A stretch of 64,000 nt of DNA. Origin: an uncultured Clostridium sp. (GTDB lineage Bacteria; Bacillota; Clostridia; Lachnospirales; Lachnospiraceae). How positions within the stretch are numbered: the first letter of the stretch is position 1; every line of letters begins with the position of its first letter. The notes under the pieces are model-generated. The model was not told the origin of the DNA. It did not search any database and was given only the letters and a program-made list of their open reading frames with translations. Where the stretch lies: the NCBI GenBank assembly GCA_964655525.1, contig CAZZNE010000009.1:46099-110098 (forward strand), in the 5' to 3' direction. Below, piece after piece: positions 7,130-30,816 of the stretch. Position numbers and translations under genes: made by a program.

Positions 7130-7209
7130 TATACGGATTTTTATGTAACTACGAACGAGTTTATGGCCTGAGAGGGACCGGAGTGTCCCCTCAGGTCTTG
7201 GAGGTTAAA

Positions 7210-8703
7210 ATGACGAGTCAGACATTGCGAGAAGCAAGAAAATATGAAGAAATGATGGAAGTTCATATTGCTCCTGAGGATAGACCTGTCTTTCATCTTT
7301 CTCCCAGAGTGGGGTGGATGAATGATCCGAATGGATTCTCCTATTATAAGGGAGAGTATCATCTGTTTTACCAGTATCACCCTTACGACTCTTTCTGGGG
7401 ACCCATGCATTGGGGGCATGCGGTGAGCAAGGATCTTCTGCACTGGGAATATTTGCCTGCGGCGTTGGCTCCGGATATGCCTTATGACAAGGATGGCTGC
7501 TTCTCCGGAAGCGCGGTGACACTTCCTGATGGGTCTCAGATGCTTCTTTATACCGGTGTGATGAGAGAACCGCAGGCGGACGGAAGCTTTCAGGACGTCC
7601 AGACACAATGTATTGCAATCGGGGACGGCAGAGATTATGAAAAAATTTTAAATAATCCGGTGCTGACAGAAAAGGATCTGCCGGAGGGCGGCAGCAGATA
7701 TGATTTCCGCGATCCTAAGGTATGGCTGGGAGAAGATGGCGTTTACTATTGTGTGGTTGGCAACTGTACGGAGGATCATGACGGACAGATTTTGTTATAC
7801 AGCAGCGCAGACGGAATCTGCTGGAAGTATGAGAGTATCCTAGCAAAAAATAACGGAAGATTTGGAAGAATGTGGGAATGTCCGGATTTTTTTGAGATGG
7901 ATGGAAAACATATGATCATAACCAGTCCTCAGGATATGCTGCCCGAAGGTTTCGAGTATCATAATGGAAACGGAACGCTGTGCCTGATCGGAAACTATGA
8001 CCGGGAGACGAAGACGTTTCTGGAGGAACATGATCAGACGGTGGATTATGGAATTGATTTCTATGCACCGCAGACAATATTGACGCCCGACGGCAGACGG
8101 GTTATGATCGGATGGATGCAGAATTGGGATACCTGTAATATGCGCAGCCAGCCTAAGAACTGGTTTGGTCAAATGTCCCTTCCAAGAGAATTATCTTTCA
8201 GAAATGGGAGATTATATCAAAAACCTATCAGGGAGTTTGATGAACTCAGGTGTAATAGGGTGGAATACAAAGATGTGTTTGTAAACGGCCTTGTCAGACT
8301 GGATGGGATAGAAGGAAGACTGGTTGATATGGAGCTTCGGATCCGTCCTGCAGACGCGGCGCAGATATTCCGGAAGTTTGCCCTGCGCTTTGCACAGGAT
8401 AAAACGCATTACACCGCGATCAGTTTCCGTCCGATGGAATCCATATTGAAAGTGGACCGTAAATTCTCCGGTTCCAGAAGAGCGATCATTCATCAAAGAC
8501 GTAGTCAGGTAAACCATGAGGAGGGGAAGTTGAAGCTGCGGGTCATCTTAGACCGTCTCAGCGTGGAGGTTTTTATAAACGACGGAGAACAGGTGATGAC
8601 TGCCACAATTGATACCCCGCAGGATGCAAGAGAAATATCGTTTGTTGCGGAGGATGGAAATGTGATTGTTGATGTGGTAAAGTATGACATAAGCAGCAGG
8701 TAA
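7210..8703 (+). CDS. Cytoplasmic GH32 beta-fructofuranosidase / sucrose-6-phosphate hydrolase
   Basis: Canonical GH32 motifs 'GWMNDPNGFSYYKGEYHLFYQYHP', 'FRDPKVW' and 'WECPDFF'. No signal peptide. GGAGG lies 5 nt before the ATG at 7210. Confidence 0.9.
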   Translation: MTSQTLREARKYEEMMEVHIAPEDRPVFHLSPRVGWMNDPNGFSYYKGEYHLFYQYHPYDSFWGPMHWGHAVSKDLLHWEYLPAALAPDMPYDKDGCFSGSAVTLPDGSQMLLYTGVMREPQADGSFQDVQTQCIAIGDGRDYEKILNNPVLTEKDLPEGGSRYDFRDPKVWLGEDGVYYCVVGNCTEDHDGQILLYSSADGICWKYESILAKNNGRFGRMWECPDFFEMDGKHMIITSPQDMLPEGFEYHNGNGTLCLIGNYDRETKTFLEEHDQTVDYGIDFYAPQTILTPDGRRVMIGWMQNWDTCNMRSQPKNWFGQMSLPRELSFRNGRLYQKPIREFDELRCNRVEYKDVFVNGLVRLDGIEGRLVDMELRIRPADAAQIFRKFALRFAQDKTHYTAISFRPMESILKVDRKFSGSRRAIIHQRRSQVNHEEGKLKLRVILDRLSVEVFINDGEQVMTATIDTPQDAREISFVAEDGNVIVDVVKYDISSR

Positions 8704-8761
8704 CGATTTTGAGAGAGCAGTCTGATCGTGAGCATGGCAAAGGGAAATGAAAGGAGCAGGT

Positions 8762-9730
8762 ATGAAAACAGTAGACGTGACCGCATTAGGAGAATTACTG
8801 ATTGATTTTACGGAAAACGGAGTGAGTGGACAGGGAAATCCGCTGTTTGAGGCCAATCCCGGCGGCGCGCCTTGCAACGTGTTGGCGATGTTGTCACGGA
8901 TGGGGCATAAAACCGCTTTTATTGGAAAGGTTGGCAAAGACTTCTTCGGAGAACAGTTAAAAAACGCCATCCGGGAGGTGGGAATCAGCGCGGATTCCCT
9001 GCGGATGGACGAGAACGTTCATACGACATTGGCACTTGTGCATACCTTTCCGGATGGAGACAGGGACTTTTCTTTTTATCGGGAACCCGGCGCGGATATG
9101 ATGCTGACAGAGGAGGAAGTACCGGAGGAGCTCCTTGAAAATACGAAGATTTTTCACTTCGGAACGCTCTCGATGACCCATGAAGGGGTGCGTCAGGCAA
9201 CGAAAAAGGCAATAGCGCTTGCTGAACGGTCCGGTGCATGGATTTCCTTTGATCCAAATTTAAGACCGCCTCTGTGGAAGAGCATGGAGGAGGCAAGAGA
9301 GCAGGTGCTGTATGGGCTGGCGCACTGCCATATCTTAAAAATTTCCGACAATGAGATTCAGTGGCTGACGGGAGAAGAAGATTATACGGCGGGCGTGAAT
9401 TGGATTCGTGATCGGTTTGAAATTCCGCTGATCTTAGTGTCCATGGGCAAGGAAGGGAGCAGAGCTTACTATCAGGGCAGGATGGTGGAAGTAAAACCAT
9501 ATCTTCGGGAGAATACCATTGAGACCACGGGCGCGGGAGATACGTTCTGCGGGTGTGTTCTGCATTATATCGTGGAGCACGGACTGAACGGTCTGACGGA
9601 GGAAGATTTGACTGAAATGTTGGATTTTGCCAACTGCGCGGCTTCTATTATCACTACGAGGAAAGGCGCCCTGCGGGTGATGCCTACTCGGGAAGAGATT
9701 GAGTGTGAGAGAAAGCGAAAACTGTTATAG
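8762..9730 (+). CDS. Fructokinase (PfkB/ribokinase-family sugar kinase)
   Basis: 'ALGELLIDF' N-terminus and the C-terminal PfkB signature 'TTGAGDTFCGCVL'. It is positioned after the two GH32 genes. The RBS AAAGGAGCAGG precedes the ATG at 8762. Confidence 0.85.
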   Translation: MKTVDVTALGELLIDFTENGVSGQGNPLFEANPGGAPCNVLAMLSRMGHKTAFIGKVGKDFFGEQLKNAIREVGISADSLRMDENVHTTLALVHTFPDGDRDFSFYREPGADMMLTEEEVPEELLENTKIFHFGTLSMTHEGVRQATKKAIALAERSGAWISFDPNLRPPLWKSMEEAREQVLYGLAHCHILKISDNEIQWLTGEEDYTAGVNWIRDRFEIPLILVSMGKEGSRAYYQGRMVEVKPYLRENTIETTGAGDTFCGCVLHYIVEHGLNGLTEEDLTEMLDFANCAASIITTRKGALRVMPTREEIECERKRKLL

Positions 9731-10027: not shown

Positions 10028-10225
10028 ATGAATTCTGCTCCTTTTGAAAGAATTTGACATTGCTTGTGACAATTATACATCGAATTGGGTGCAATGACAA
10101 ATAAATTCCCTGATTTTCACAAAAATAGCTTCAAATTCGGGATGTTTTATAGTACAATGTAAAAATAGACAAGGACGCCAGGATGCGGAGCGTCAGAAAA
10201 AACCGCAAAGGGGGAAGGTGCCAAT

Positions 10226-11530
10226 ATGTTTAGTCAGTTGTTTGGCGCGTTTTTGCTCGAGCAAAACGTGATTACAAAGGATATGATGGATAGTGTATTA
10301 GCGGAGCAGACGGATGCGCGGGCAAAGCTGGGAACAATTGCCGTGGCAGCCGGTTATCTGACGAACGAGCAGGTGGAGGAAATTCACCTGCTGCAGGCGC
10401 AGCAGGATAAGCGCTTTGGTGATATTGCATTGGAGAAGGGTTATCTGACGATGAAGCAGCTCATGGAGCTCTTGGACCAGCAGGGCAATGCGTTCATGAA
10501 GTTCCTTCAGTTACTTGTGGAGAAGAATTGTGTTCCGGTTTCGGAGATCGACACCTATCTCTCGCAATTTCAGGAGACCAAAGGCTTTTCGGATCAGGAC
10601 ATGAAGGCGCTCAAGAAAGATGACATCGATGCGATCGTTCCGGTATTCGCGTTTGCGGCGAAGCCGTTTGTGACGGATGTGACGGCGCTGGTGCTGAGGA
10701 ATATCGCGCGTTTTATTACGATGGATTTTTATATTGACAGGATCCGCCGCGTGGAGGATTATGAGTATCATGCGCTCGCGGGGCAGAGGATTAACGGGGA
10801 TTATCAGGTTTGGCTTGCCTTTGTGGGAAAAGAAGATGACGAGGGGCTTTACACATTGGCGACGGGTTATGCAGGAGAGCAGGCGAGACGCAAAAAGGAC
10901 ATTGCGTATGACGTCATCGGCGAATTTACGAATATATGCAGCGGATTGTTTGCATCCAGTTTGAGCGAAAAAGGAATTTTTATCGATATGGAGTCGCCGT
11001 TTGCCTATGAATCGCAGCAGATGAAAGGCAAGGGCTATATCGTGCCGATCTATCTGAAAGGCAAATTGCTGGAATTGTTTATTTCGGTCAATGAGGAGGT
11101 CGTTCCGGGAACCGTACCGTATAAGAAAAAGGTTGCAAAGCAAGCGGGAAGCGCGGTGACGGAGAACAGTAAAGGCACGATCATTATCGTGGATGATTCC
11201 ATGCTGATCCGTCATGCGTTGCGCGTGCTGGTGGAGAAGGCGGGCTATACGGTCGTTTGCGAGGCAGAAAACGGGGAAGAAGCGATCGAAGTCTATCAGA
11301 AATACCATCCCGATATGATCTCGCTGGATATCACGATGCCTGTAATGGACGGCGTTGAGGCACTGCGCAGGATCAAAGAACTTGATCCTGCAGCCAATGT
11401 TGTGATGATCACGGCAGCGGGACAGCAGCAGAAGGTGATCGAGGCGATCAAGCTCGGCGCGTCGAAATTTATCGTAAAGCCGTTCAGCAGGGACGAGGTG
11501 CTTGATACCATTGCGGAAGTCATCCGATAG
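10226..11530 (+). CDS. Multidomain response regulator: N-terminal MshEN/T2SSE_N-like triple motif, CheX/CheC-like middle region and C-terminal CheY-like receiver
   Basis: Receiver residues 'IIIVDDS', 'MISLDITMP', 'VVMITAAG' and 'KFIVKPF'. Middle region 'DVIGEFTNICSGLFASSL...IDMESP' is CheX-like. The N-terminus holds three 24-aa units separated by 5-aa spacers (see findings). Confidence 0.8.
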   Translation: MFSQLFGAFLLEQNVITKDMMDSVLAEQTDARAKLGTIAVAAGYLTNEQVEEIHLLQAQQDKRFGDIALEKGYLTMKQLMELLDQQGNAFMKFLQLLVEKNCVPVSEIDTYLSQFQETKGFSDQDMKALKKDDIDAIVPVFAFAAKPFVTDVTALVLRNIARFITMDFYIDRIRRVEDYEYHALAGQRINGDYQVWLAFVGKEDDEGLYTLATGYAGEQARRKKDIAYDVIGEFTNICSGLFASSLSEKGIFIDMESPFAYESQQMKGKGYIVPIYLKGKLLELFISVNEEVVPGTVPYKKKVAKQAGSAVTENSKGTIIIVDDSMLIRHALRVLVEKAGYTVVCEAENGEEAIEVYQKYHPDMISLDITMPVMDGVEALRRIKELDPAANVVMITAAGQQQKVIEAIKLGASKFIVKPFSRDEVLDTIAEVIR

Positions 11531-11567
11531 GATTGCGGACAAAACGCTGCGGAGGGAAAAACATTCT

Positions 11568-12710
11568 ATGTGGCTTTTGGGCGGAAACGTATATATTGCG
11601 GAGCAGGGGTTTTGCAAACGGAACCTTCTGCTCCGAAATGGTATTATAGAGCGGATTGTACCGCAGGGAGAGACGGTGGAGGAAGCGCGCCTGCATGACG
11701 TGGAAACGGTGGATGTGCAGGGCGCTACTATTTTGCCGGGACTTGTGGATATCCATTTTCACGGTTGCGCGGGACATGATTTTTGTGAAGGGACAAAGGA
11801 GGCGTTTGAAGCCATTGAGCGGTATGAGCTCCGTCACGGGATCACGGTCATATCGCCCGCGACAATGACGTTACCGGAAGAACGGCTGTGTAAGATCTGT
11901 GCCGAGGCAGCGGCATATGCGAAGGAAAGTGAGTGCTTAAAAGGGATTTATCTGGAAGGTCCTTTTCTATCGGAAGCCAAAAAAGGAGCGCAGAACAGTG
12001 CATATCTGAGGCTCCCGGACATAGAGCTGCTGCGCGGACTGAATGCGAAGGCGGAAGGGCTGATCCGGATCGTAGCGATTGCGCCCGAGCGGGAGGGTGC
12101 GATCGCGTGTATGGAAGCATGCGCGGAGCAATTTCGTTTTTCCGTGGCGCATACGACGGCGGACTATGCGACATGCGCCCGGGCGATGCAAACGGGCGCA
12201 AAGCAGGTGACGCATCTGTATAACGCGATGCCGCCGTTTACGCACAGGGAGCCGGGAGTGATCGGCGCGGCGTTTGATCATGGCGTGGACGTGGAATTGA
12301 TCAGTGACGGCGTGCATGTGGAAGCGTGCGCGGTGCGTATGGCATTCCGGCTGTTTGGCGAGGAGCATGTCATCCTGATCAGCGACAGCATGATGGCGGC
12401 TGGAATGCCCGACGGCATGTATGAGCTTGGCGGGCAGGCGGTCACGGTGCGCGGAAAACGGGCGGTGCTTTCAGACGGTACGATCGCGGGAAGCGTGACC
12501 AATCTGTATGACTGCATGGTGACGGCGATCCGCATGGGGATTCCGGCAGAGGCGGCGGTGCGCGCTGCGACAAGCAATCCGGCGGCGGCGCTCGGCATTG
12601 ACACCGATTACGGAAGTATTGCGATCGGGAAAAGAGCGGATCTGCTTGTGGTGAATGATGACTGGGAACTGCAAAGGGTTTATAAGCACGGCAGGGAGGT
12701 GCGGCTGTGA
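11568..12710 (+). CDS. nagA: N-acetylglucosamine-6-phosphate deacetylase
   Basis: 'LPGLVDIHFHGCAGHDF', 'GIYLEGPFLS..KKGAQ', 'HLYNAMPPFTHREPGVIGAA' and 'ELISDGVHV' are classic NagA amidohydrolase motifs. GGAGGG lies upstream of the ATG at 11568. Confidence 0.9.
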   Translation: MWLLGGNVYIAEQGFCKRNLLLRNGIIERIVPQGETVEEARLHDVETVDVQGATILPGLVDIHFHGCAGHDFCEGTKEAFEAIERYELRHGITVISPATMTLPEERLCKICAEAAAYAKESECLKGIYLEGPFLSEAKKGAQNSAYLRLPDIELLRGLNAKAEGLIRIVAIAPEREGAIACMEACAEQFRFSVAHTTADYATCARAMQTGAKQVTHLYNAMPPFTHREPGVIGAAFDHGVDVELISDGVHVEACAVRMAFRLFGEEHVILISDSMMAAGMPDGMYELGGQAVTVRGKRAVLSDGTIAGSVTNLYDCMVTAIRMGIPAEAAVRAATSNPAAALGIDTDYGSIAIGKRADLLVVNDDWELQRVYKHGREVRL

Positions 12711-12752: not shown

Positions 12753-13649
12753 ATGGCAACCTATCTGGTTGACTTGGAAAATACGGGGCTGGCAGGGCTA
12801 TCGGGCTTGGAGGAGCTGTCCGCAAAGGATAAGGTCATTGTTTTTTACGGGACGCGGACAGGCTCGATTGCGTTTGACAAGCATGTGGAGCTGACAAAGG
12901 CAAAGGCGGATGTTACCTACACGAAGACGGAGCGCGTGGCAAAAAATTATCTGGATTTTCAGCTTGTGACCTATCTCGGATACCTGATCGGAAGCGGGCA
13001 GGAGCGCGTATATTATATTATCAGTAAGGATAAGGGATACGACAGCTGTATCGAATTTTGGAGAAAGACAAATAAGCAGATTGCGATCACGCGCTGCGAA
13101 TCGCTGCAAAAGCAAAAAACGGTGACGCAGACGGCGGCGCAGTCAGATGCGGGCAAAGGCGCACAGGCGGCAGCTGGCGAGCATGCGGATATGCAGAAGA
13201 ATCCGGCATCTGAACCGATGCAGGCAGATCCGTCCGTAAGCGGCGGCAAGCAGTCGAAGCAAAAGGCATCCGGCAAAACGTCATCAACCCCGAAAGCGTC
13301 CGGCAAGGAGGCGTCCGATCAGAAAGCATCCGATCAGAAAGCATCCGACAGGGAGGCATCCGATCAGAAGGCATCCGGGAAAAAGGCGCCTGATCAGAAA
13401 AAATCTGAGAAACCGTCCCTGCCCGAGAGCATGAGAAAGAAAATCCGCAAGGCGGTTAAGGAAGAAGGACTTGAGGCCGGAAGCTATAAGTTTATCTATG
13501 ATTATGTTGTGAAATCTTCGGATAAGCAAAAATTAAATATCGCACTAGTTAAGCATTTTCAACAGGAGAAAGGAAACCGGCTGTACAAGGAGATTCTGGA
13601 TGTATTTGCCGAATATCATAAGCAGATATCAGGCTGCGGTCAGGGATAG
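12753..13649 (+). CDS. NYN/LabA-like (PIN-like) domain protein with a low-complexity pentapeptide-repeat linker and a small C-terminal helical domain
   Basis: N-terminus 'YLVDLENTG...KNYLDFQLVTYLGYL...VYYIISKDKGYDSCIEFW' resembles the NYN pattern (DxEN ... KNaaDiaL ... SgDsDF). The middle is K/S/D/Q-rich repeats. Confidence 0.6.
   Translation: MATYLVDLENTGLAGLSGLEELSAKDKVIVFYGTRTGSIAFDKHVELTKAKADVTYTKTERVAKNYLDFQLVTYLGYLIGSGQERVYYIISKDKGYDSCIEFWRKTNKQIAITRCESLQKQKTVTQTAAQSDAGKGAQAAAGEHADMQKNPASEPMQADPSVSGGKQSKQKASGKTSSTPKASGKEASDQKASDQKASDREASDQKASGKKAPDQKKSEKPSLPESMRKKIRKAVKEEGLEAGSYKFIYDYVVKSSDKQKLNIALVKHFQQEKGNRLYKEILDVFAEYHKQISGCGQG
13266..13400 (+). repeat. About nine degenerate tandem 15-nt units (GCATCCGATCAGAAA-like) encoding AS(D/G)(Q/K)K pentapeptides
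   Basis: Read directly from the sequence: gcgtccgatcagaaa / gcatccgatcagaaa / gcatccgacagggag / gcatccgatcagaag / gcatccgggaaaaag / gcgcctgatcagaaa, with more degenerate units upstream. Confidence 0.85.
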
Positions 13650-19034: not shown

Positions 19035-19229
19035 CGCGAGTTCCTTTCAACTTTGTTTGATCAAGATACGTCTGATAAATATAAAGTATAGCGATAAAAT
19101 GTAGTATTTGTAAATAAACCATTAAATATTTGTGAAAAATGTACATTTTTTCCGAAATATGGTATAATGATTACAGAATTTAGCACAAAAACGACAGCCT
19201 GAGTGTATGCTTGGATTGGGGGAGTGGAA

Positions 19230-19868
19230 ATGGAATTTTGGCCTAGTGCAAACAGTGAGGTGGATAAGTGGAAGGAAGTGCAGCTTGTCTATCAATCGGC
19301 ATTGAAAGAAATCGGAACAAAGCTTGAGATCCTGAATGATGAATTTCAGCATGTACATAAGTATAATCCGATTGAGCATATCAAGTCGAGGATCAAGACA
19401 TCGGAGAGCATCGTTAAGAAATTGAAGCGTAACGGATATGATTCGACGATTGAAAATATGATCGAGCATGTGAATGACATTGCGGGAATCCGCGTAATCT
19501 GTTCCTTTACGTCGGATATTGAACAGATCGCGAAAATGATCGAGCGCCAGAGCGACTTAAAGGTCATTGGGATCAAGGATTACTTTACAAATCCGAAGCC
19601 GAACGGCTATCAGAGCTATCACATGCTTGTTACCGTGCCGATCAATCTGTCGGACAGAATCGTCGATACGAAAGTGGAGATTCAGATCCGAACGGTTGCG
19701 ATGGATTTTTGGGCGAGCCTGGAGCATAAGATTCATTACAAATTCGAAGGGGAGACACCGGAAACGATCGAGCGTGAGCTGATGGAATGCGCGCGCATGG
19801 TTTCCGAGCTGGATGCGAAGATGCTTTCCCTTAACAATGAAGTCAGAAAAATCGAAGAGCAGGATTAG
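19230..19868 (+). CDS. Small alarmone synthetase (RelA/SpoT-domain GTP pyrophosphokinase, RelQ/RelP type)
   Basis: 'DIAGIRVICSF', 'KPNGYQSYHMLV' and 'VEIQIRTVAMDFWASLEHKIHYK'. About 212 aa with a single domain. The promoter TGTACA-17-TATAAT (TATAAT at 19163-19168) lies upstream. Confidence 0.9.
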   Translation: MEFWPSANSEVDKWKEVQLVYQSALKEIGTKLEILNDEFQHVHKYNPIEHIKSRIKTSESIVKKLKRNGYDSTIENMIEHVNDIAGIRVICSFTSDIEQIAKMIERQSDLKVIGIKDYFTNPKPNGYQSYHMLVTVPINLSDRIVDTKVEIQIRTVAMDFWASLEHKIHYKFEGETPETIERELMECARMVSELDAKMLSLNNEVRKIEEQD

Positions 19869-28035: not shown

Positions 28036-28194
28036 AAAAGAGTGCTATGCACTCTTTTTTACGAAATTGGAATTATCTCAGTACGGAAAGAACGCTGCGC
28101 GTTCTTTTTTAACTTATAGGAAATTCCTCAATCCCGGAAAGAATTTGCGAATGCAAATTCTTTGAAAGATTTGCGCCACGCGCAAATCTTTTTT
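28034..28194. repeat. Four consecutive terminator-like hairpins sharing an AAAGA...TCTTT frame in a convergent intergenic region
   Basis: H1 28034-28060 (AAAAGAGTGC/GCACTCTTTT), H2 28087-28110 (AAAGAACGC/GCGTTCTTT), H3 28138-28163 (AAAGAATTTGC/GCAAATTCTTT) and H4 28165-28194 (AAAGATTTGCGC/GCGCAAATCTTT). Confidence 0.8.
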
Positions 28195-29266
28195 ATAAAA
28201 TCTTTACAATGGACAGCTCCGTTTCTTTGAAGAGATCAACAAAGGTATCCCCCACGCGTACGGTCGGCCGTGCAGGGTTGTTCGGATTGATGAAGACGAC
28301 CTCACCCTCCCTGCCGTCGCTTAGGCGGACGCGGTTTAACAGGTAGGTTGTTACGACATTATTCATAAAAGTCATATAATAGCCGGGGTCATATTTCTGC
28401 AGTCCCTCGGAAACGAGAATATCGATCACTTCAAACGGGCAGAGAGGACCGCGATAGATACGCGCGCTTGTCATGGCATCATATACGTCGGCGATGGAAA
28501 CAATCTTTGCGAATTTGTCGATCTTATTGCCGACAAGTCCGAGCGGATAACCGGTGCCGTCACAGCGTTCGTGATGCATCAATGCGGCGTTGCAGACATG
28601 CTCGTTCACGTTCTGCGCGCGCAGGATCTTATAGCCCTCATACGGATGCGTTTTAATGACGGAAAACTCTTCCTCGGTCAGTTTCGCAGGCTTTTTAATG
28701 ATAAAATCGGGAATGACGAGCTTGCCGATGTCATGCAGCATGCCGCACAGCGTCGCCAGCTCAATATCCTCCTGCGAAAAAAGGAGCCATCGGGCAAAAA
28801 TATTACAGATCAGGGCGACGTTCATCGAATGTGCATAGGTCTGATCATCATAGGAACGCATACTCTGCAGCATGGTAAATACGTTGAAGGAAGCCTTTTT
28901 GGTCTGAACAAGAGATAATGCCTGCTCCAGCATAGCATCCGTATCGATCGGCGCATTGTTCTCAACAATATCGTTCAGACTGCTTTTAAAGCCAACCAAA
29001 GATTCATCAAAATAGCGCTTGAATGCCTGAAATTCCGGGCTGCTCTGCACATGCTCGGAAACGGAAAGGCTGGGAGAAGGGCTTCCTAATGACTCATTCC
29101 GATCGTCCTCAACACGAATAGAGAGGATGGAATAAAATTCAAGCTTTGTAATGGTTTTGTCTGTTAAGGTAAGTCCTTTGGGAAGGATCAGTTGATCGCT
29201 GTAGCTATAGACGTCCTCCGCCGTGACCATTCCCGGAACCAATTCTTGCGTGCTCAGTCTTTTCAT
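28193..29266 (-). CDS. HD-GYP domain protein (putative c-di-GMP phosphodiesterase) with an uncharacterised N-terminal region of about 150 aa
   Basis: 'HSMNVALICNIFA', 'LCGMLHDIGKLVIP' and 'HHERCDGTGYPLGL'. GGGAGG lies 6 nt before the ATG at 29266. Confidence 0.9.
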   Translation of the reverse strand: MKRLSTQELVPGMVTAEDVYSYSDQLILPKGLTLTDKTITKLEFYSILSIRVEDDRNESLGSPSPSLSVSEHVQSSPEFQAFKRYFDESLVGFKSSLNDIVENNAPIDTDAMLEQALSLVQTKKASFNVFTMLQSMRSYDDQTYAHSMNVALICNIFARWLLFSQEDIELATLCGMLHDIGKLVIPDFIIKKPAKLTEEEFSVIKTHPYEGYKILRAQNVNEHVCNAALMHHERCDGTGYPLGLVGNKIDKFAKIVSIADVYDAMTSARIYRGPLCPFEVIDILVSEGLQKYDPGYYMTFMNNVVTTYLLNRVRLSDGREGEVVFINPNNPARPTVRVGDTFVDLFKETELSIVKIL

Positions 29267-29347
29267 AGCGTACCTCCCTTCAGTCAAAAGTAACAATAGT
29301 GATAGTAAAATTATAAAATTTTTTTACTATATTGTCAATCAAATCCA

Positions 29348-29428: not shown

Positions 29429-29603
29429 CTCTTATTCGGAGTGGTGGAGATACATAGGATCTGTGAAGCCACGGCAACCCCATAACCGGAAGGTGCCAAC
29501 CTGAGCGAATATTGTTGACCGCATATCATCTGCGGTTGATCGAACAATAAGAGGATTTGATTATCTGTGATGTCAGGTCCGCTTAGCTGCGGACTTATTT
29601 TTT
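29429..29603 (+). promoter_or_regulatory. SAM-I (S-box) riboswitch with intrinsic terminator
   Basis: P1 CTCTTATT/AATAAGAG. Conserved blocks 'GGTGGAGA', 'GTGAAGCCACGGCAACC' and 'GGAAGGTGCCAACCTGAGCG'. Terminator GTCCGC-ttagct-GCGGAC followed by TTATTTTTTT (about 29576-29603). It sits directly upstream of metK. Confidence 0.9.
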
Positions 29604-29628
29604 TGTGATAAAGAAGGAGGAACCAATC

Positions 29629-30816
29629 ATGGAAAAACACTTATTTACGTCTGAATCCGTTACGGAGGGGCATCCTGACAAAGTCTGCGATGCGGTTTCC
29701 GACGCCATCTTAGACGCCTGCATGGAGCAGGATCCGATGAGCCGCGTTGCCTGTGAGACAGCCGCATGTACGGGGTTTGTGCTTGTCACGGGTGAGATTA
29801 CAACAAAGGCGAATCTGGATATTCCGGCAATCGTCAGAAAAACGGTGAACGAGATCGGTTATGATGATGCAAAGACAGGATTTGACGGGAATACCTGCGC
29901 GGTCATGGTCGCATTGGACAAGCAGTCTCCCGATATTGCAATGGGTGTAGACAAAGCGCTGGAGGCAAGAGAGGCGAAAATGTCCGACGAGCAGCTTGCC
30001 GCGATCGGTGCGGGCGATCAGGGTATGATGTTCGGCTATGCGACAAACGAAACCGAAGAATATATGCCGTACCCGATCTCGCTTGCGCACAAGCTGGCAT
30101 TACAGCTTACCAAAGTGAGAAAGGACGGTACGCTTTCTTATTTAAGACCGGACGGCAAGAGTCAGGTCTCTGTGGAATATGATGAAAATAATAAGCCGAT
30201 CCGCTTAGAGGCGGTTGTGTTGTCCACACAGCACGACGAGGATGTCACGCAGGAGCAGATTCATGAGGACATCAAAAAATATGTGTTTGATCCGGTGCTT
30301 CCGAAGGAACTGATCGATGAGAATACGAAATACTTTATCAACCCGACGGGACGCTTTGTGATCGGCGGACCGCACGGCGATGCGGGTCTGACGGGACGTA
30401 AGATCATTGTGGATACCTACGGAGGCTACGCCAGACACGGCGGCGGCGCATTTTCGGGGAAGGACTGCACGAAGGTCGATCGTTCCGCGGCGTACGCGGC
30501 GCGCTATGTCGCAAAAAATATCGTGGCGGCGGGACTTGCCGATAAATGTGAGATTCAGTTATCCTACGCGATCGGCGTAGCGGAGCCGACCTCCGTCATG
30601 ATCGATACGTTCGGCACGGGAAAATTAAGCTCAGAGAAGCTGGTTGGCATCATCCGTGACAATTTTGATTTAAGACCTGCGGGCATTATCAAAATGCTCG
30701 ATCTGCGCAGACCGATCTACAAGCAGACCGCAGCATACGGGCACTTCGGACGCAACGACTTGAATCTGCCGTGGGAGCAGCTTGATAAGGTCGATGTGTT
30801 AAAGAAATATTTATAA
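29629..30816 (+). CDS. metK: S-adenosylmethionine synthase
   Basis: '[16 protein letters not shown]', '[12 protein letters not shown]', '[21 protein letters not shown]' and 'GGGAFSGKD'. AAGGAGG RBS. Confidence 0.97.

Follow-up and report, generated by a model that had tools for sequence, protein, structure and literature searches.

The gene at 10226..11530 (+) of the window, the whole 64,000-nt stretch of DNA analysed, is read as encoding a CheX-type phosphatase that is regulated by c-di-GMP and joined to a CheY-like receiver of its own, a function that we infer with moderate confidence. All three modules are real and their functional residues are kept across the family, and therefore a c-di-GMP sensor, a CheX-type phosphatase and a receiver in a single polypeptide, the combination suggested in a first-pass annotation of this DNA, is the best reading. 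Unless marked otherwise, all features described below lie on the (+) strand.

Gene and domain organization

The ATG-initiated open reading frame (10226..11530, stop codon included) encodes 434 aa and has its own strong ribosome binding site (RBS), AAAGGGGGAAGG (10207..10218), read from the sequence 7 nt before the ATG, in agreement with the gene first called at these positions. Upstream, a weak sigma-70-like promoter candidate, TTCAAA-17-TACAAT (10130..10158), matches the consensus at 9 of 12 positions in a consensus scan only. The ORF, its homologs (at least 120 among the matches listed, at 48–97% identity and 98–100% coverage) and a full-length AF2 model (pLDDT 89.1, pTM 0.83) show a domain order of four MshEN_N-type helical hairpins, a CheX-like domain and a receiver. 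An antisense ORF of 368 aa (10511-11617, −) lies wholly within this strongly conserved coding frame, is without support and was rejected.

Hairpin array and predicted c-di-GMP module

The N-terminus consists of four 24-residue hairpins, which form eight helices in the AF2 model. The periodicity already recognised in the first-pass annotation, three 24-residue units with exact 5-residue spacers, is as described there, with unit 1 (aa 5–28; 10238..10309) followed by TDARA, unit 2 (aa 34–57; 10325..10396) by AQQDK, and then unit 3 (aa 63–86; 10412..10483). Overlooked in that count was a fourth, degenerate hairpin (aa 92–115/116; 10499..10573 for aa 92–116), which comes after the 5-residue spacer GNAFM. 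Unit 1 is also degenerate; it spans model helices 2–12 and 18–28 and keeps F6, G7 and Q28, but its position 1 is not basic and its position 10 is not Gly. Unit 2 corresponds to MshE motif I in phmmer and profile alignments to 5HTL (motif residues K34, L35, G36, G43, V50, Q57 and H54, the last Asn/His in the family), and unit 3 to MshE motif II (R63, F64, G65, D66, G72, L79, L83 and Q86). Unit 4, with model helices 89–99 and 105–119, has no Gly at position 3 and conserves F93, Q95, F115 and Q116; it is the counterpart of the fourth motif in the alignment of Glov_2742 by Wang et al. Taking the relaxed motif of Wang et al. 2016 as the yardstick for units 1–3, unit 3 is a full match, unit 2 has one mismatch (H54, motif position 21) and unit 1 has two (L5 at position 1 and N14 at position 10). 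The three motif matches claimed at first were generous, because unit 3 alone fits the relaxed motif fully. The hairpins are followed by two short linker helices (aa 120–146; 10583..10663; conserved GFSD..M.ALK..DID) that connect the sensor array to the CheX-like domain, and the MshEN_C (T2SSE_N1) subdomain is absent. Weak sub-cutoff Pfam matches at the N-terminus (DUF4388, FumaraseC_C and CARD) were dismissed as helical-hairpin noise.

The NCBIfam model NF053729 ('c-di-GMP_motif, MshE-related'), which has 53 positions (24+5+24) and a cutoff of 38 bits, matched the 434-aa protein at 69.4 bits (E=1.6e-19) with three matched stretches, and matched the split relatives described below at 45–54 bits. 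Judged by this score, the 24+5 repeat is far beyond chance. Pfam T2SSE_N (PF05157), the profile proposed in the first-pass annotation, gave no match in the protein even at E<=10, and the MshE-related model matched instead. The T2SSE_N null is uninformative because the protein has the MshEN_N subdomain only, for which NF053729 is the apt model; on sequence grounds it belongs to the MshEN_N-only category as used by Wang et al. (PMC5013675). In other proteins, MshEN_N alone suffices for c-di-GMP binding, with values of 0.35 µM for VcMshEN_N 1–65 and 2.6 µM for the Aeromonas veronii CheA insert, which is an MshEN_N alone (Wang et al. 2016, PMC5013675).

Units 2 and 3 together comprise 53 residues (aa 34–86) that align to MshE 4–62 or 6–63. 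The family profile searched against the PDB found MshE 5HTL at 5e-7, with profile positions 29–87 on MshE 4–62, and PilF at 3.5e-7. The predicted model superposed on c-di-GMP-bound 5HTL and on the PilF GSPII-B chains that fitted best over 53–57 columns at ~0.7–1.1 Å, with probability 1.00 and 28–33% identity. When the registers were compared, units 2+3 gave 17/53 identities against 11/53 for units 1+2 and 13/53 for units 3+4, and the superposition identity likewise fits units 2+3 better. In these alignments and models, only units 2 and 3 are shown to form the canonical 53-residue predicted c-di-GMP module, reproducing the MshE site.

Conservation was assessed in an alignment of fused homologs (A1) and a broad alignment of the wider family (A2). 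Unit 2 keeps G36, A39 and Q57 without exception in A1 and at a level of 90% or more in A2; in unit 3, R63, F64, G65, D66, A68, L83 and Q86 are invariant in A1, with F64, A68 and Q86 invariant also in A2. The ligand-contact set of each motif consists of Arg at position 1, Leu at position 2, Gly at positions 3 and 10, Leu at positions 17 and 21, and Gln at position 24. This set is complete in unit 3, with Phe for Leu at position 2, while unit 2 has Lys for Arg, Val for Leu at position 17 and the polar H54 (Asn/His in the family) for Leu at position 21. Relative to MshE, the conserved departures are therefore Leu29 to His54 (family Asn/His), Leu25 to Val/Ala and Arg9 to Lys in motif I, and Leu39 to an invariant Phe in motif II. 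The positions found to be indispensable in PilF are both Gln and the Arg and Gly of motif II (PMC12002112), and their counterparts Q57, Q86, R63 and G65 are all invariant in A1.

Such departures bear on an alternative that we regard as unlikely, namely that the protein is a plain CheX–CheY fusion with its activity under phosphorylation control alone. Motif I departs at a ligand-contact position (His/Asn54 for Leu29), units 1 and 4 are degenerate, and Wang et al. (PMC5013675) note that some of their listed proteins are without a recognisable binding motif. PilF GSPII-A illustrates that a perfect motif may still be non-binding, owing to flanking helices and interdomain contacts, and restoring its consensus does not confer binding (PMC12002112); extra hairpins flank units 2 and 3 here. 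The module is no prerequisite for the core pair, as Lachnospira multipara (L052) has a CheX+REC gene pair without any hairpins. Against control by phosphorylation alone, the best-conserved N-terminal columns are exactly the ligand-contact positions of units 2 and 3 (G36, Q57, R/K63, F64, G65, L83 and Q86), the curated c-di-GMP_motif model is passed by a wide margin, and genes for c-di-GMP enzymes recur as immediate neighbours.

CheX-like domain and receiver

The putative phosphatase of the preferred reading is the CheX-like domain (aa 147–290; 10664..11095). Receiver structures, several hundred in number, dominated the fold search when the full-length model was used, and residues 1–310 were therefore predicted separately. 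With this re-predicted model, the top 13 PDB matches in Foldseek were CheX or CheX-like members of the CheC superfamily, with TM scores of 0.66–0.77 over ~150 columns, and the profile search against the PDB found Thermotoga maritima CheX (1XKO) at 3e-7. The CheX/CheC profile check proposed earlier gave a divided result, since Pfam CheC (PF04509) scored 23.3 bits, just over its cutoff of 22, and Pfam CheX (PF13690) 17.2 bits, under its cutoff of 27; in the split relatives Pfam CheX reaches 34–35 bits and exceeds that cutoff. The pattern D/S-x3-E-x2-N-x(~22)-P was found in a single copy as the CheC/CheX catalytic motif D229-x3-E233-x2-N236 ... P258 (10910..10999). No sequence in A1 departs from D229, E233 or N236, and the broader A2 keeps E233 throughout and N236 at a level of at least 90%. 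By eye, the catalytic segment aligns without gaps and with the same spacing to T. maritima CheX (...GELGN...DITPP). The CheX/CheC-like region named in the first-pass annotation was borne out, both in its CheX fold and in the retention of catalytic Glu233 and Asn236.

The C-terminal receiver (aa 318–434; 11177..11527) was matched by Pfam Response_reg (PF00072) at E=2.9e-32 and 111.5 bits, against a cutoff of 30.2, and in Foldseek by T. maritima CheY at TM 0.93–0.96 and 44–46% identity. Its key residues are D323, D324, D368, T396, F415 and K418; for D323, D324, D368, T396 and K418 there is no variation, either within A1 or across the full set of receivers sampled. With all phospho-acceptor residues kept, its initial description as a complete CheY-like receiver holds. 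The NF041367 model (CheY_Halo) scored 117 bits on the receiver, under its cutoff of 200, and the clade to which the receiver belongs does not include the CheY encoded in Lachnospiraceae fla operons. By score, by clade and by having no che or fla genes nearby, it does not qualify as a canonical motor-binding CheY.

These results also weigh on a second alternative, which we hold to be decidedly unlikely, in which the protein acts at the flagellar motor or another complex and its CheC/CheX/FliM-type fold is a docking module, not a phosphatase. Such a protein would depend on c-di-GMP and on phosphorylation and would serve as a brake or switch regulator, functionally like the YcgR and MotI brakes or Caulobacter Cle, which is CheY-like. 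The fold is common to the FliM middle domain and FliY, which appear among the lower-ranked Foldseek matches, Pfam CheX stays under threshold for this protein, the receiver resembles T. maritima CheY at the identity given above, and an aromatic residue, F415, is kept at the position of Escherichia coli CheY Y106. However, even in homologs at only 27% identity the catalytic Glu and Asn are kept with little or no variation, which is unexpected for a purely structural module, the structural matches are best for CheX proper (TM 0.66–0.77, against 0.26–0.46 for FliM), and the receiver clade is distinct from canonical fla-operon CheY.

Origin by gene fusion

The family is widespread, with 133 clusters (50% identity) at E<=1e-30; its members, sampled from gut and rumen, belong to Lachnospira, Butyrivibrio, Acetatifactor and their relatives. 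The MshEN_N–CheX part is a gene of its own, of ~295 aa, in 30 relatives at a greater distance. Lachnospiraceae bacterium P6A3 (L041) and Butyrivibrio loci are examples of this split pair, and the complete genome of [Lactobacillus] rogosae CLA-AA-H255 (L011) carries the fused form. The family match extends through the receiver in 30/30 of these split loci, and in 26/30 a separate REC ORF of ~120 aa lies a few to ~75 nt downstream of the MshEN_N–CheX gene. In the fused protein, the linker between CheX and REC (aa 291–317; 11096..11176) lies where the split relatives have a stop codon, a short intergenic gap and a start codon. A tree of the MshEN–CheX part places the fused forms as a monophyletic group inside the split forms. 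The receivers of fused proteins resemble those of split loci a little more (49%) than they resemble canonical fla-operon CheY (46%). These comparisons show that the protein arose by fusion of an MshEN_N–CheX gene with a cheY-like gene directly downstream.

As all fused proteins belong to a single derived clade, the CheX-type phosphatase most likely has the receiver as its cognate partner, and probably as its substrate. The phosphorylation input of the first-pass annotation is better read in this way than as an independent one, as the receiver was ancestrally a separate gene directly downstream. Because the phosphatase and receiver genes neighbour each other in most relatives and are joined in this protein, the predicted substrate is effectively labelled.

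Proposed mechanism and precedents

In the proposed mechanism, c-di-GMP would bind at aa 34–86 and shift the packing of the helical array on the catalytic helix (aa 224–247), switching phosphatase activity. The CheX domain would remove the phosphoryl group from Asp368 of the fused receiver, either in cis or between the subunits of a CheX-type dimer; free CheY-P may also be a substrate. The phosphatase–receiver pair, presumably drawing on a chemotaxis-type kinase encoded elsewhere, would then act as a c-di-GMP-tunable phosphate sink or as a short-lived signalling receiver, and the level of c-di-GMP would thereby be coupled to that of CheY-P and to swimming in flagellated Lachnospiraceae. In its strongest form, which is possible and offered tentatively, the covalent link of receiver and phosphatase would let c-di-GMP set the phospho-half-life of the receiver, and the protein would function as a self-contained, c-di-GMP-gated phosphate sink that drains a chemotaxis-type kinase, making swimming directly c-di-GMP-dependent. 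If so, this would operate in flagellated Lachnospiraceae of gut and rumen by a mechanism distinct from PilZ brakes and riboswitches. The split and fused forms would then be a natural experiment on the effect that tethering of phosphatase and substrate has on signalling, and the conserved remodelling at Asn/His54 and Phe64 would represent a variant MshEN_N binding mode.

The architecture, which had not been recognised at first, is partly on record. The arrangement '(MshEN_N)2 - CheX' was catalogued in 2016 for Geobacter lovleyi Glov_2742 ('Deltaproteobacteria, Firmicutes') in Supplementary Table 4 of Wang et al. (PMC5013675); the sensor–phosphatase pairing is thus known, and the receiver fusion alone appears undescribed. 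A literature search, with Galperin's 2006 response-regulator census outside it, found no natural CheX–receiver fusion described, nor a test of any MshEN_N–CheX protein, and Glov_2742 and its CheX-linked family are absent from the ITC binding table of Wang et al. (PMC5013675). Glov_2742 (ACD96455) has the same four-hairpin N-terminus, alignable without gaps over 116 residues (31% identity, pairwise E=1e-20), and shares with the window protein a His at motif I position 21 and a CheX domain after the hairpins, whereas the C-terminal receiver is present only in the window protein. Wang et al. parsed the Glov_2742 hairpins as (1+2)(3+4), while alignment and model here point to 2+3 as the best MshE-like site.

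MshEN_N also occurs within chemotaxis or two-component proteins, as here, in the A. veronii CheA insert (EKB11881) and in the Bdellovibrio REC–MshEN_N protein Bd2402, for which c-di-GMP binding is given as 0.04 µM (table) or 0.4 µM (footnote) (Wang et al. 2016, PMC5013675). The partner domains in these two proteins are a kinase and a receiver then an unknown domain, respectively, with no phosphatase, unlike the window protein. In Vibrio cholerae, the c-di-GMP effector PlzC regulates the CheX phosphatase in trans and so links c-di-GMP and chemotaxis (PMC12799141). PlzC differs in being a separate PilZ-domain protein whose inhibition of CheX is reported to be c-di-GMP-independent (PMC12799141), whereas the sensor of the window protein is of the MshEN_N type and fused. 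Among structural relatives, V. cholerae MshE (5HTL) and Thermus PilF GSPII-B/C have the same two 24-residue motifs with a 5-residue spacer in a four-helix module, and their contact residues Arg/Lys, Gly and Gln are conserved in the window protein, which differs in having no MshEN_C/T2SSE_N1, no ATPase and two more, degenerate hairpins flanking the site. T. maritima CheX (1XKO/1SQU) and Borrelia burgdorferi CheX–CheY3 (3HZH) share the fold and the single E-x2-N on a long helix; these CheX proteins act on a CheY-type receiver, and the predicted partner in the window protein is of the same type. Canonical CheX is a stand-alone protein of ~155 aa, whereas the CheX of the window protein, at 12–19% identity, sits between a nucleotide sensor and a receiver. 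The Caulobacter Cle proteins are CheY-like c-di-GMP effectors that, as reported by Nesper et al. in 2017, act on the motor and bind c-di-GMP by means of an Arg-rich C-terminal extension. They are likewise CheY-like receivers with a function gated by c-di-GMP, as is proposed here, but have no MshEN_N and no CheX domain.

The c-di-GMP receptors of Clostridia are still largely unknown, and the family offers a promising, not unprecedented, link of c-di-GMP to chemotaxis-type signalling. It would tie c-di-GMP directly to CheY-type phosphosignalling by way of a regulated phosphatase, a node for which the trans-acting PlzC–CheX system of V. cholerae is the sole experimental precedent found. The family would also be informative on the extent to which the MshEN motif may drift (Leu to Asn/His and Leu to Phe) before ligand binding is lost.

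Genomic neighbourhood

When ±5 genes were clustered in 41 family loci, no conserved neighbour was found besides the adjacent receiver; the neighbours are housekeeping genes, e.g. ArgRS, ABC transporters, PFK and nagA. A GGDEF, HD-GYP or HAMP-GGDEF-EAL gene lies directly upstream (position −1) in 6/41 loci, two further loci have c-di-GMP enzyme genes at −2 or −3, and locus L090 has one at −2, with at least three c-di-GMP enzyme types among the neighbours. The presence of GGDEF, EAL and HD-GYP enzymes, together with retention of the conserved Gly (G36 and G65) after which backbone amides confer guanine specificity in MshE, makes it very improbable that the module binds another cyclic dinucleotide (3'3'-cGAMP or c-di-AMP) through a first guanine pocket remodelled at Asn/His54 and Phe64, even though the substitutions at these two Gua1-contacting positions are family-specific, conserved and found also in Glov_2742 ('ETAHSAQ'), and VcMshEN is reported to bind cGAMP, more weakly but detectably.

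Close to the gene, the scanned ORFs of the window and the gene calls for its near-identical relatives include no kinase, chemotaxis or flagellar gene, consistent with the first-pass observation that no kinase or chemotaxis gene is adjacent, and none of the family loci examined has a CheA, CheW, MCP or flagellar gene nearby. Rfam gave no c-di-GMP riboswitch in the window, its sole match being a SAM riboswitch. The HD-GYP gene noted ~17 kb away was located at 28193-29296 (−), with a Pfam HD_5 match and the motif HHERCDGTGYP. The overlap with nagA reported at first proved to be an ORF-extension artefact, present only with the maximal TTG ORF (11502). In the gene calls of 97%-identical relatives nagA starts 38 nt past the stop codon, which corresponds here to ATG 11568, and this start has its own RBS, GGAGGG.

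The response-regulator gene

The 434-aa ORF at 10226–11530 (+) is a genuine gene, with an ATG start behind a strong RBS and a TAG stop. An overlap with nagA, reported in the first-pass annotation, was an artefact of extending nagA to its maximal ORF, which opens with TTG; nagA is called 38 nt downstream in relatives, and a candidate nagA start (ATG 11568) has its own RBS. An antisense ORF lying almost wholly within the gene (10511–11617 (-), 368 aa) had no homology support and was rejected as a non-coding shadow ORF.

The N-terminal hairpins resemble the c-di-GMP site of MshE

Three 24-residue units joined by 5-residue spacers (aa 5–28, 34–57 and 63–86) are present as annotated, and a fourth, degenerate hairpin (aa 92–116, behind the spacer GNAFM) had been missed; with it, the array in the AF2 model has eight helices. 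The claim that all three units match the MshEN motif held for unit 3, which fits the motif in the relaxed form given by Wang et al., but unit 2 has one mismatch (H54) and unit 1 has two. The Pfam T2SSE_N model, to which the annotation had pointed, found no match in the protein. The NCBIfam model NF053729 (‘c-di-GMP_motif, MshE-related’), whose 53 positions equal 24+5+24, matched three stretches (69.4 bits against a cutoff of 38, E=1.6e-19). Two alignments, one of 34 full-length homologs at 48–90% identity and one of 41 sequences that takes in relatives at 27–38%, agreed on the best-conserved N-terminal columns: G36, A39 and Q57 of unit 2, D61 of the spacer, and R/K63, F64, G65, D/E66, A68, G72, L83 and Q86 of unit 3.

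As a single query, aa 31–88 aligned to MshE residues 6–63 (5HTL), and all four matches were MshEN-type domains. Searched against the PDB, the family profile matched T. maritima CheX (3e-7), PilF (3.5e-7) and MshE (5HTL, 5e-7), with profile positions 29–87 aligned to MshE 4–62; the remaining matches were CheX/CheC proteins or MshEN-bearing ATPases, barring two designed helical proteins (E>0.2). The ligand contacts of the published MshE structure were transferred by alignment. In motif I, R9, L10, G11, G18, L25, L29 and Q32 of MshE correspond to K34, L35, G36, G43, V50, H54 (Asn/His in the family) and Q57, and in motif II, R38, L39, G40, G47, L54, L58 and Q61 correspond to R63, F64, G65, G72, L79, L83 and Q86. 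A segment of 53–57 columns of the receiver-free model superimposed on c-di-GMP-bound MshE and PilF GSPII-B at ~0.7–1.1 Å with 28–33% identity. This figure agrees best with the register of units 2+3 (17/53 identities; 11/53 for 1+2, 13/53 for 3+4). c-di-GMP would be bound at aa 34–86.

Reconstruction of binding in PilF GSPII-A showed four positions to be indispensable (PMC12002112), namely the Gln of each motif and, in motif II, Arg and Gly as well; all four are kept in the window protein and invariant among the 34 aligned full-length homologs. The same domain shows that a good motif is insufficient for binding (PMC12002112), as would suit hairpins that act as a scaffold without ligand binding; we regard such a scaffold as rather unlikely.

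The CheX-like domain and receiver

The AF2 models were of high confidence for the full-length protein (pLDDT 89.1, pTM 0.83) and for aa 1–310 (pLDDT 87.2). The region annotated as CheX/CheC scored below threshold for Pfam CheX (17.2, cutoff 27) and marginally for CheC (23.3 bits, cutoff 22), but fold search, profile and catalytic motif identify it as CheX-like. The top 13 PDB matches of the receiver-free model were CheX or CheX-like members of the CheC superfamily (TM 0.66–0.77 over ~150 columns), with CheC, FliY and FliM ranked below the CheX structures. The single catalytic motif, D229-x3-E233-x2-N236...P258, shares its spacing with T. maritima CheX, and its E233 and N236 persist in relatives down to 27% identity; that the fold serves instead for docking at the motor or another complex is improbable. 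The predicted receiver was recovered by its Pfam profile (E=2.9e-32), is closest to T. maritima CheY (44–46% identity, TM ~0.95), and has invariant D323, D324, D368, T396, F415 and K418.

The first-pass annotation did not recognise this architecture as characterised. ‘(MshEN_N)2 - CheX’ had been catalogued in Deltaproteobacteria and Firmicutes, including Geobacter lovleyi Glov_2742, and REC and CheX were named among MshEN partners (Wang et al. 2016, PMC5013675). Binding was measured there for MshEN_N-only modules, one within a CheA, with Glov_2742 outside the measured set (PMC5013675). The N-termini of the window protein and Glov_2742 align without gaps, and both carry His at motif I position 21. 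Our literature search found no paper testing the MshEN_N-CheX family or describing the receiver fusion. The architecture is thus real and well supported, and the fused form is a new variation on catalogued proteins.

Fusion of adjacent genes

When a single genome per species was scanned, full-length relatives were nearly confined to Lachnospiraceae and other Clostridia. Eleven loci at ~44% identity or more carry a fused gene (433–443 aa). A further 30 loci are more distant, and there too the tblastn match extends across the receiver; 26 of these have a ~290–300-aa MshEN_N-CheX ORF followed a few to ~75 nt on by a separate ~120-aa receiver ORF, and at the other four crude ORF picking took an antisense ORF instead. 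An exhaustive search with aa 1–310 gave 133 clusters at E<=1e-30, and most complete sequences among the matches listed were of 285–300 aa, a minority of 420–440 aa. The split proteins exceed the cutoffs of Pfam CheX (34–35 bits) and NF053729 (45–54 bits).

In NJ trees the fused forms make up a single clade that lies within the split forms. Their receivers form one clade, slightly nearer to split-locus receivers (49% identity) than to canonical CheY (46%), which in Roseburia lies within a fliM-fliY-cheY-fliP-flhA operon. The fused protein arose by fusion of adjacent MshEN_N-CheX and receiver genes, and by this Rosetta-stone argument the receiver is most likely the cognate partner of the CheX domain. 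The fusion points to the phosphatase's partner and so makes a link from c-di-GMP to CheY-P directly testable, which is its main interest.

In the cultured type strain Lachnospira multipara ATCC 19207 (locus L052, 9998–10968), a 196-aa CheX-like ORF lacking MshEN_N hairpins precedes a 120-aa receiver, with 17 nt between them. The phosphatase–receiver pair therefore looks like the core, with the predicted c-di-GMP module as an add-on.

Neighbouring genes and proposed mechanism

No chemotaxis gene was found among the neighbours in the window, as first annotated, or in the family loci examined, and no conserved neighbour apart from the receiver. The HD-GYP-type phosphodiesterase gene noted ~17 kb away (28193–29296 (-); Pfam HD_5 5e-28, HHERCDGTGYP motif) confirms, as judged from its sequence, c-di-GMP turnover enzymes in the source organism. 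Among relatives' loci, a c-di-GMP enzyme lies at position -1 in L005 (GGDEF), L012 (HD-GYP) and L017, L018, L031 and L034 (divergently transcribed HAMP-GGDEF-EAL), at -2 in L033 and L090, and at -3 in L038; elsewhere in the family loci only three such genes occur among ~700 ORFs. The L033 gene, also an upstream, divergent HAMP-GGDEF-EAL, groups with L017, L018, L031 and L034 in one split-locus clade. Because the four HAMP-GGDEF-EAL cases at -1 share this clade, independent associations were put at three or more; this is suggestive evidence, though short of decisive. Through local signalling, the divergent gene may serve the module as its dedicated source or sink of c-di-GMP. An Rfam search found no c-di-GMP riboswitch in the 64-kb window.

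On balance, we lean towards a c-di-GMP-gated CheX domain that dephosphorylates its fused receiver. The CheX domain would remove phosphate from Asp368~P in cis or across a dimer, and ligand binding would change this activity. The pair would then serve as a phosphate sink tunable by c-di-GMP, or as a short-lived receiver, and its phosphate would come from a kinase encoded at another locus. Both Lachnospira and Butyrivibrio are motile, and in these flagellated genera the kinase would probably be CheA. As a functional precedent, PlzC of V. cholerae comes closest: this PilZ protein exerts its regulation of CheX in trans (PMC12799141). An altered nucleotide specificity, through remodelling by the conserved Asn/His54 and Phe64, is very unlikely.

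Other features of the window

Upstream of the response-regulator gene the window carries a GH32-like sucrose hydrolase and a fructokinase-like gene (7183–9730), where the 97%-identical relatives L001–L004 (1–9800) have CdiA_C and acetyltransferase genes; nagA, PIN7 and YggS-like genes downstream are common to all. Given differing upstream and shared downstream genes at 97% identity, a recent rearrangement or insertion boundary directly upstream is suggested.

A SAM riboswitch (29429–29553 (+); RF00162, 63.4 bits against 44.4) sits between the divergent HD-GYP gene and ORF 29605–30816, ~50 nt upstream of the latter, whose product resembles S-adenosylmethionine synthetase at its N-terminus. The PIN7-domain protein (12753–13649 (+)) has low-complexity KASD/KASG repeats (SDQKASDQKASDREASDQKASGKKAPDQK) in its C-terminal half. 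A small alarmone synthetase-like gene (19203–19868 (+), 221 aa) encodes a RelA_SpoT domain only, and its relative position is conserved in the 97%-identical relatives.
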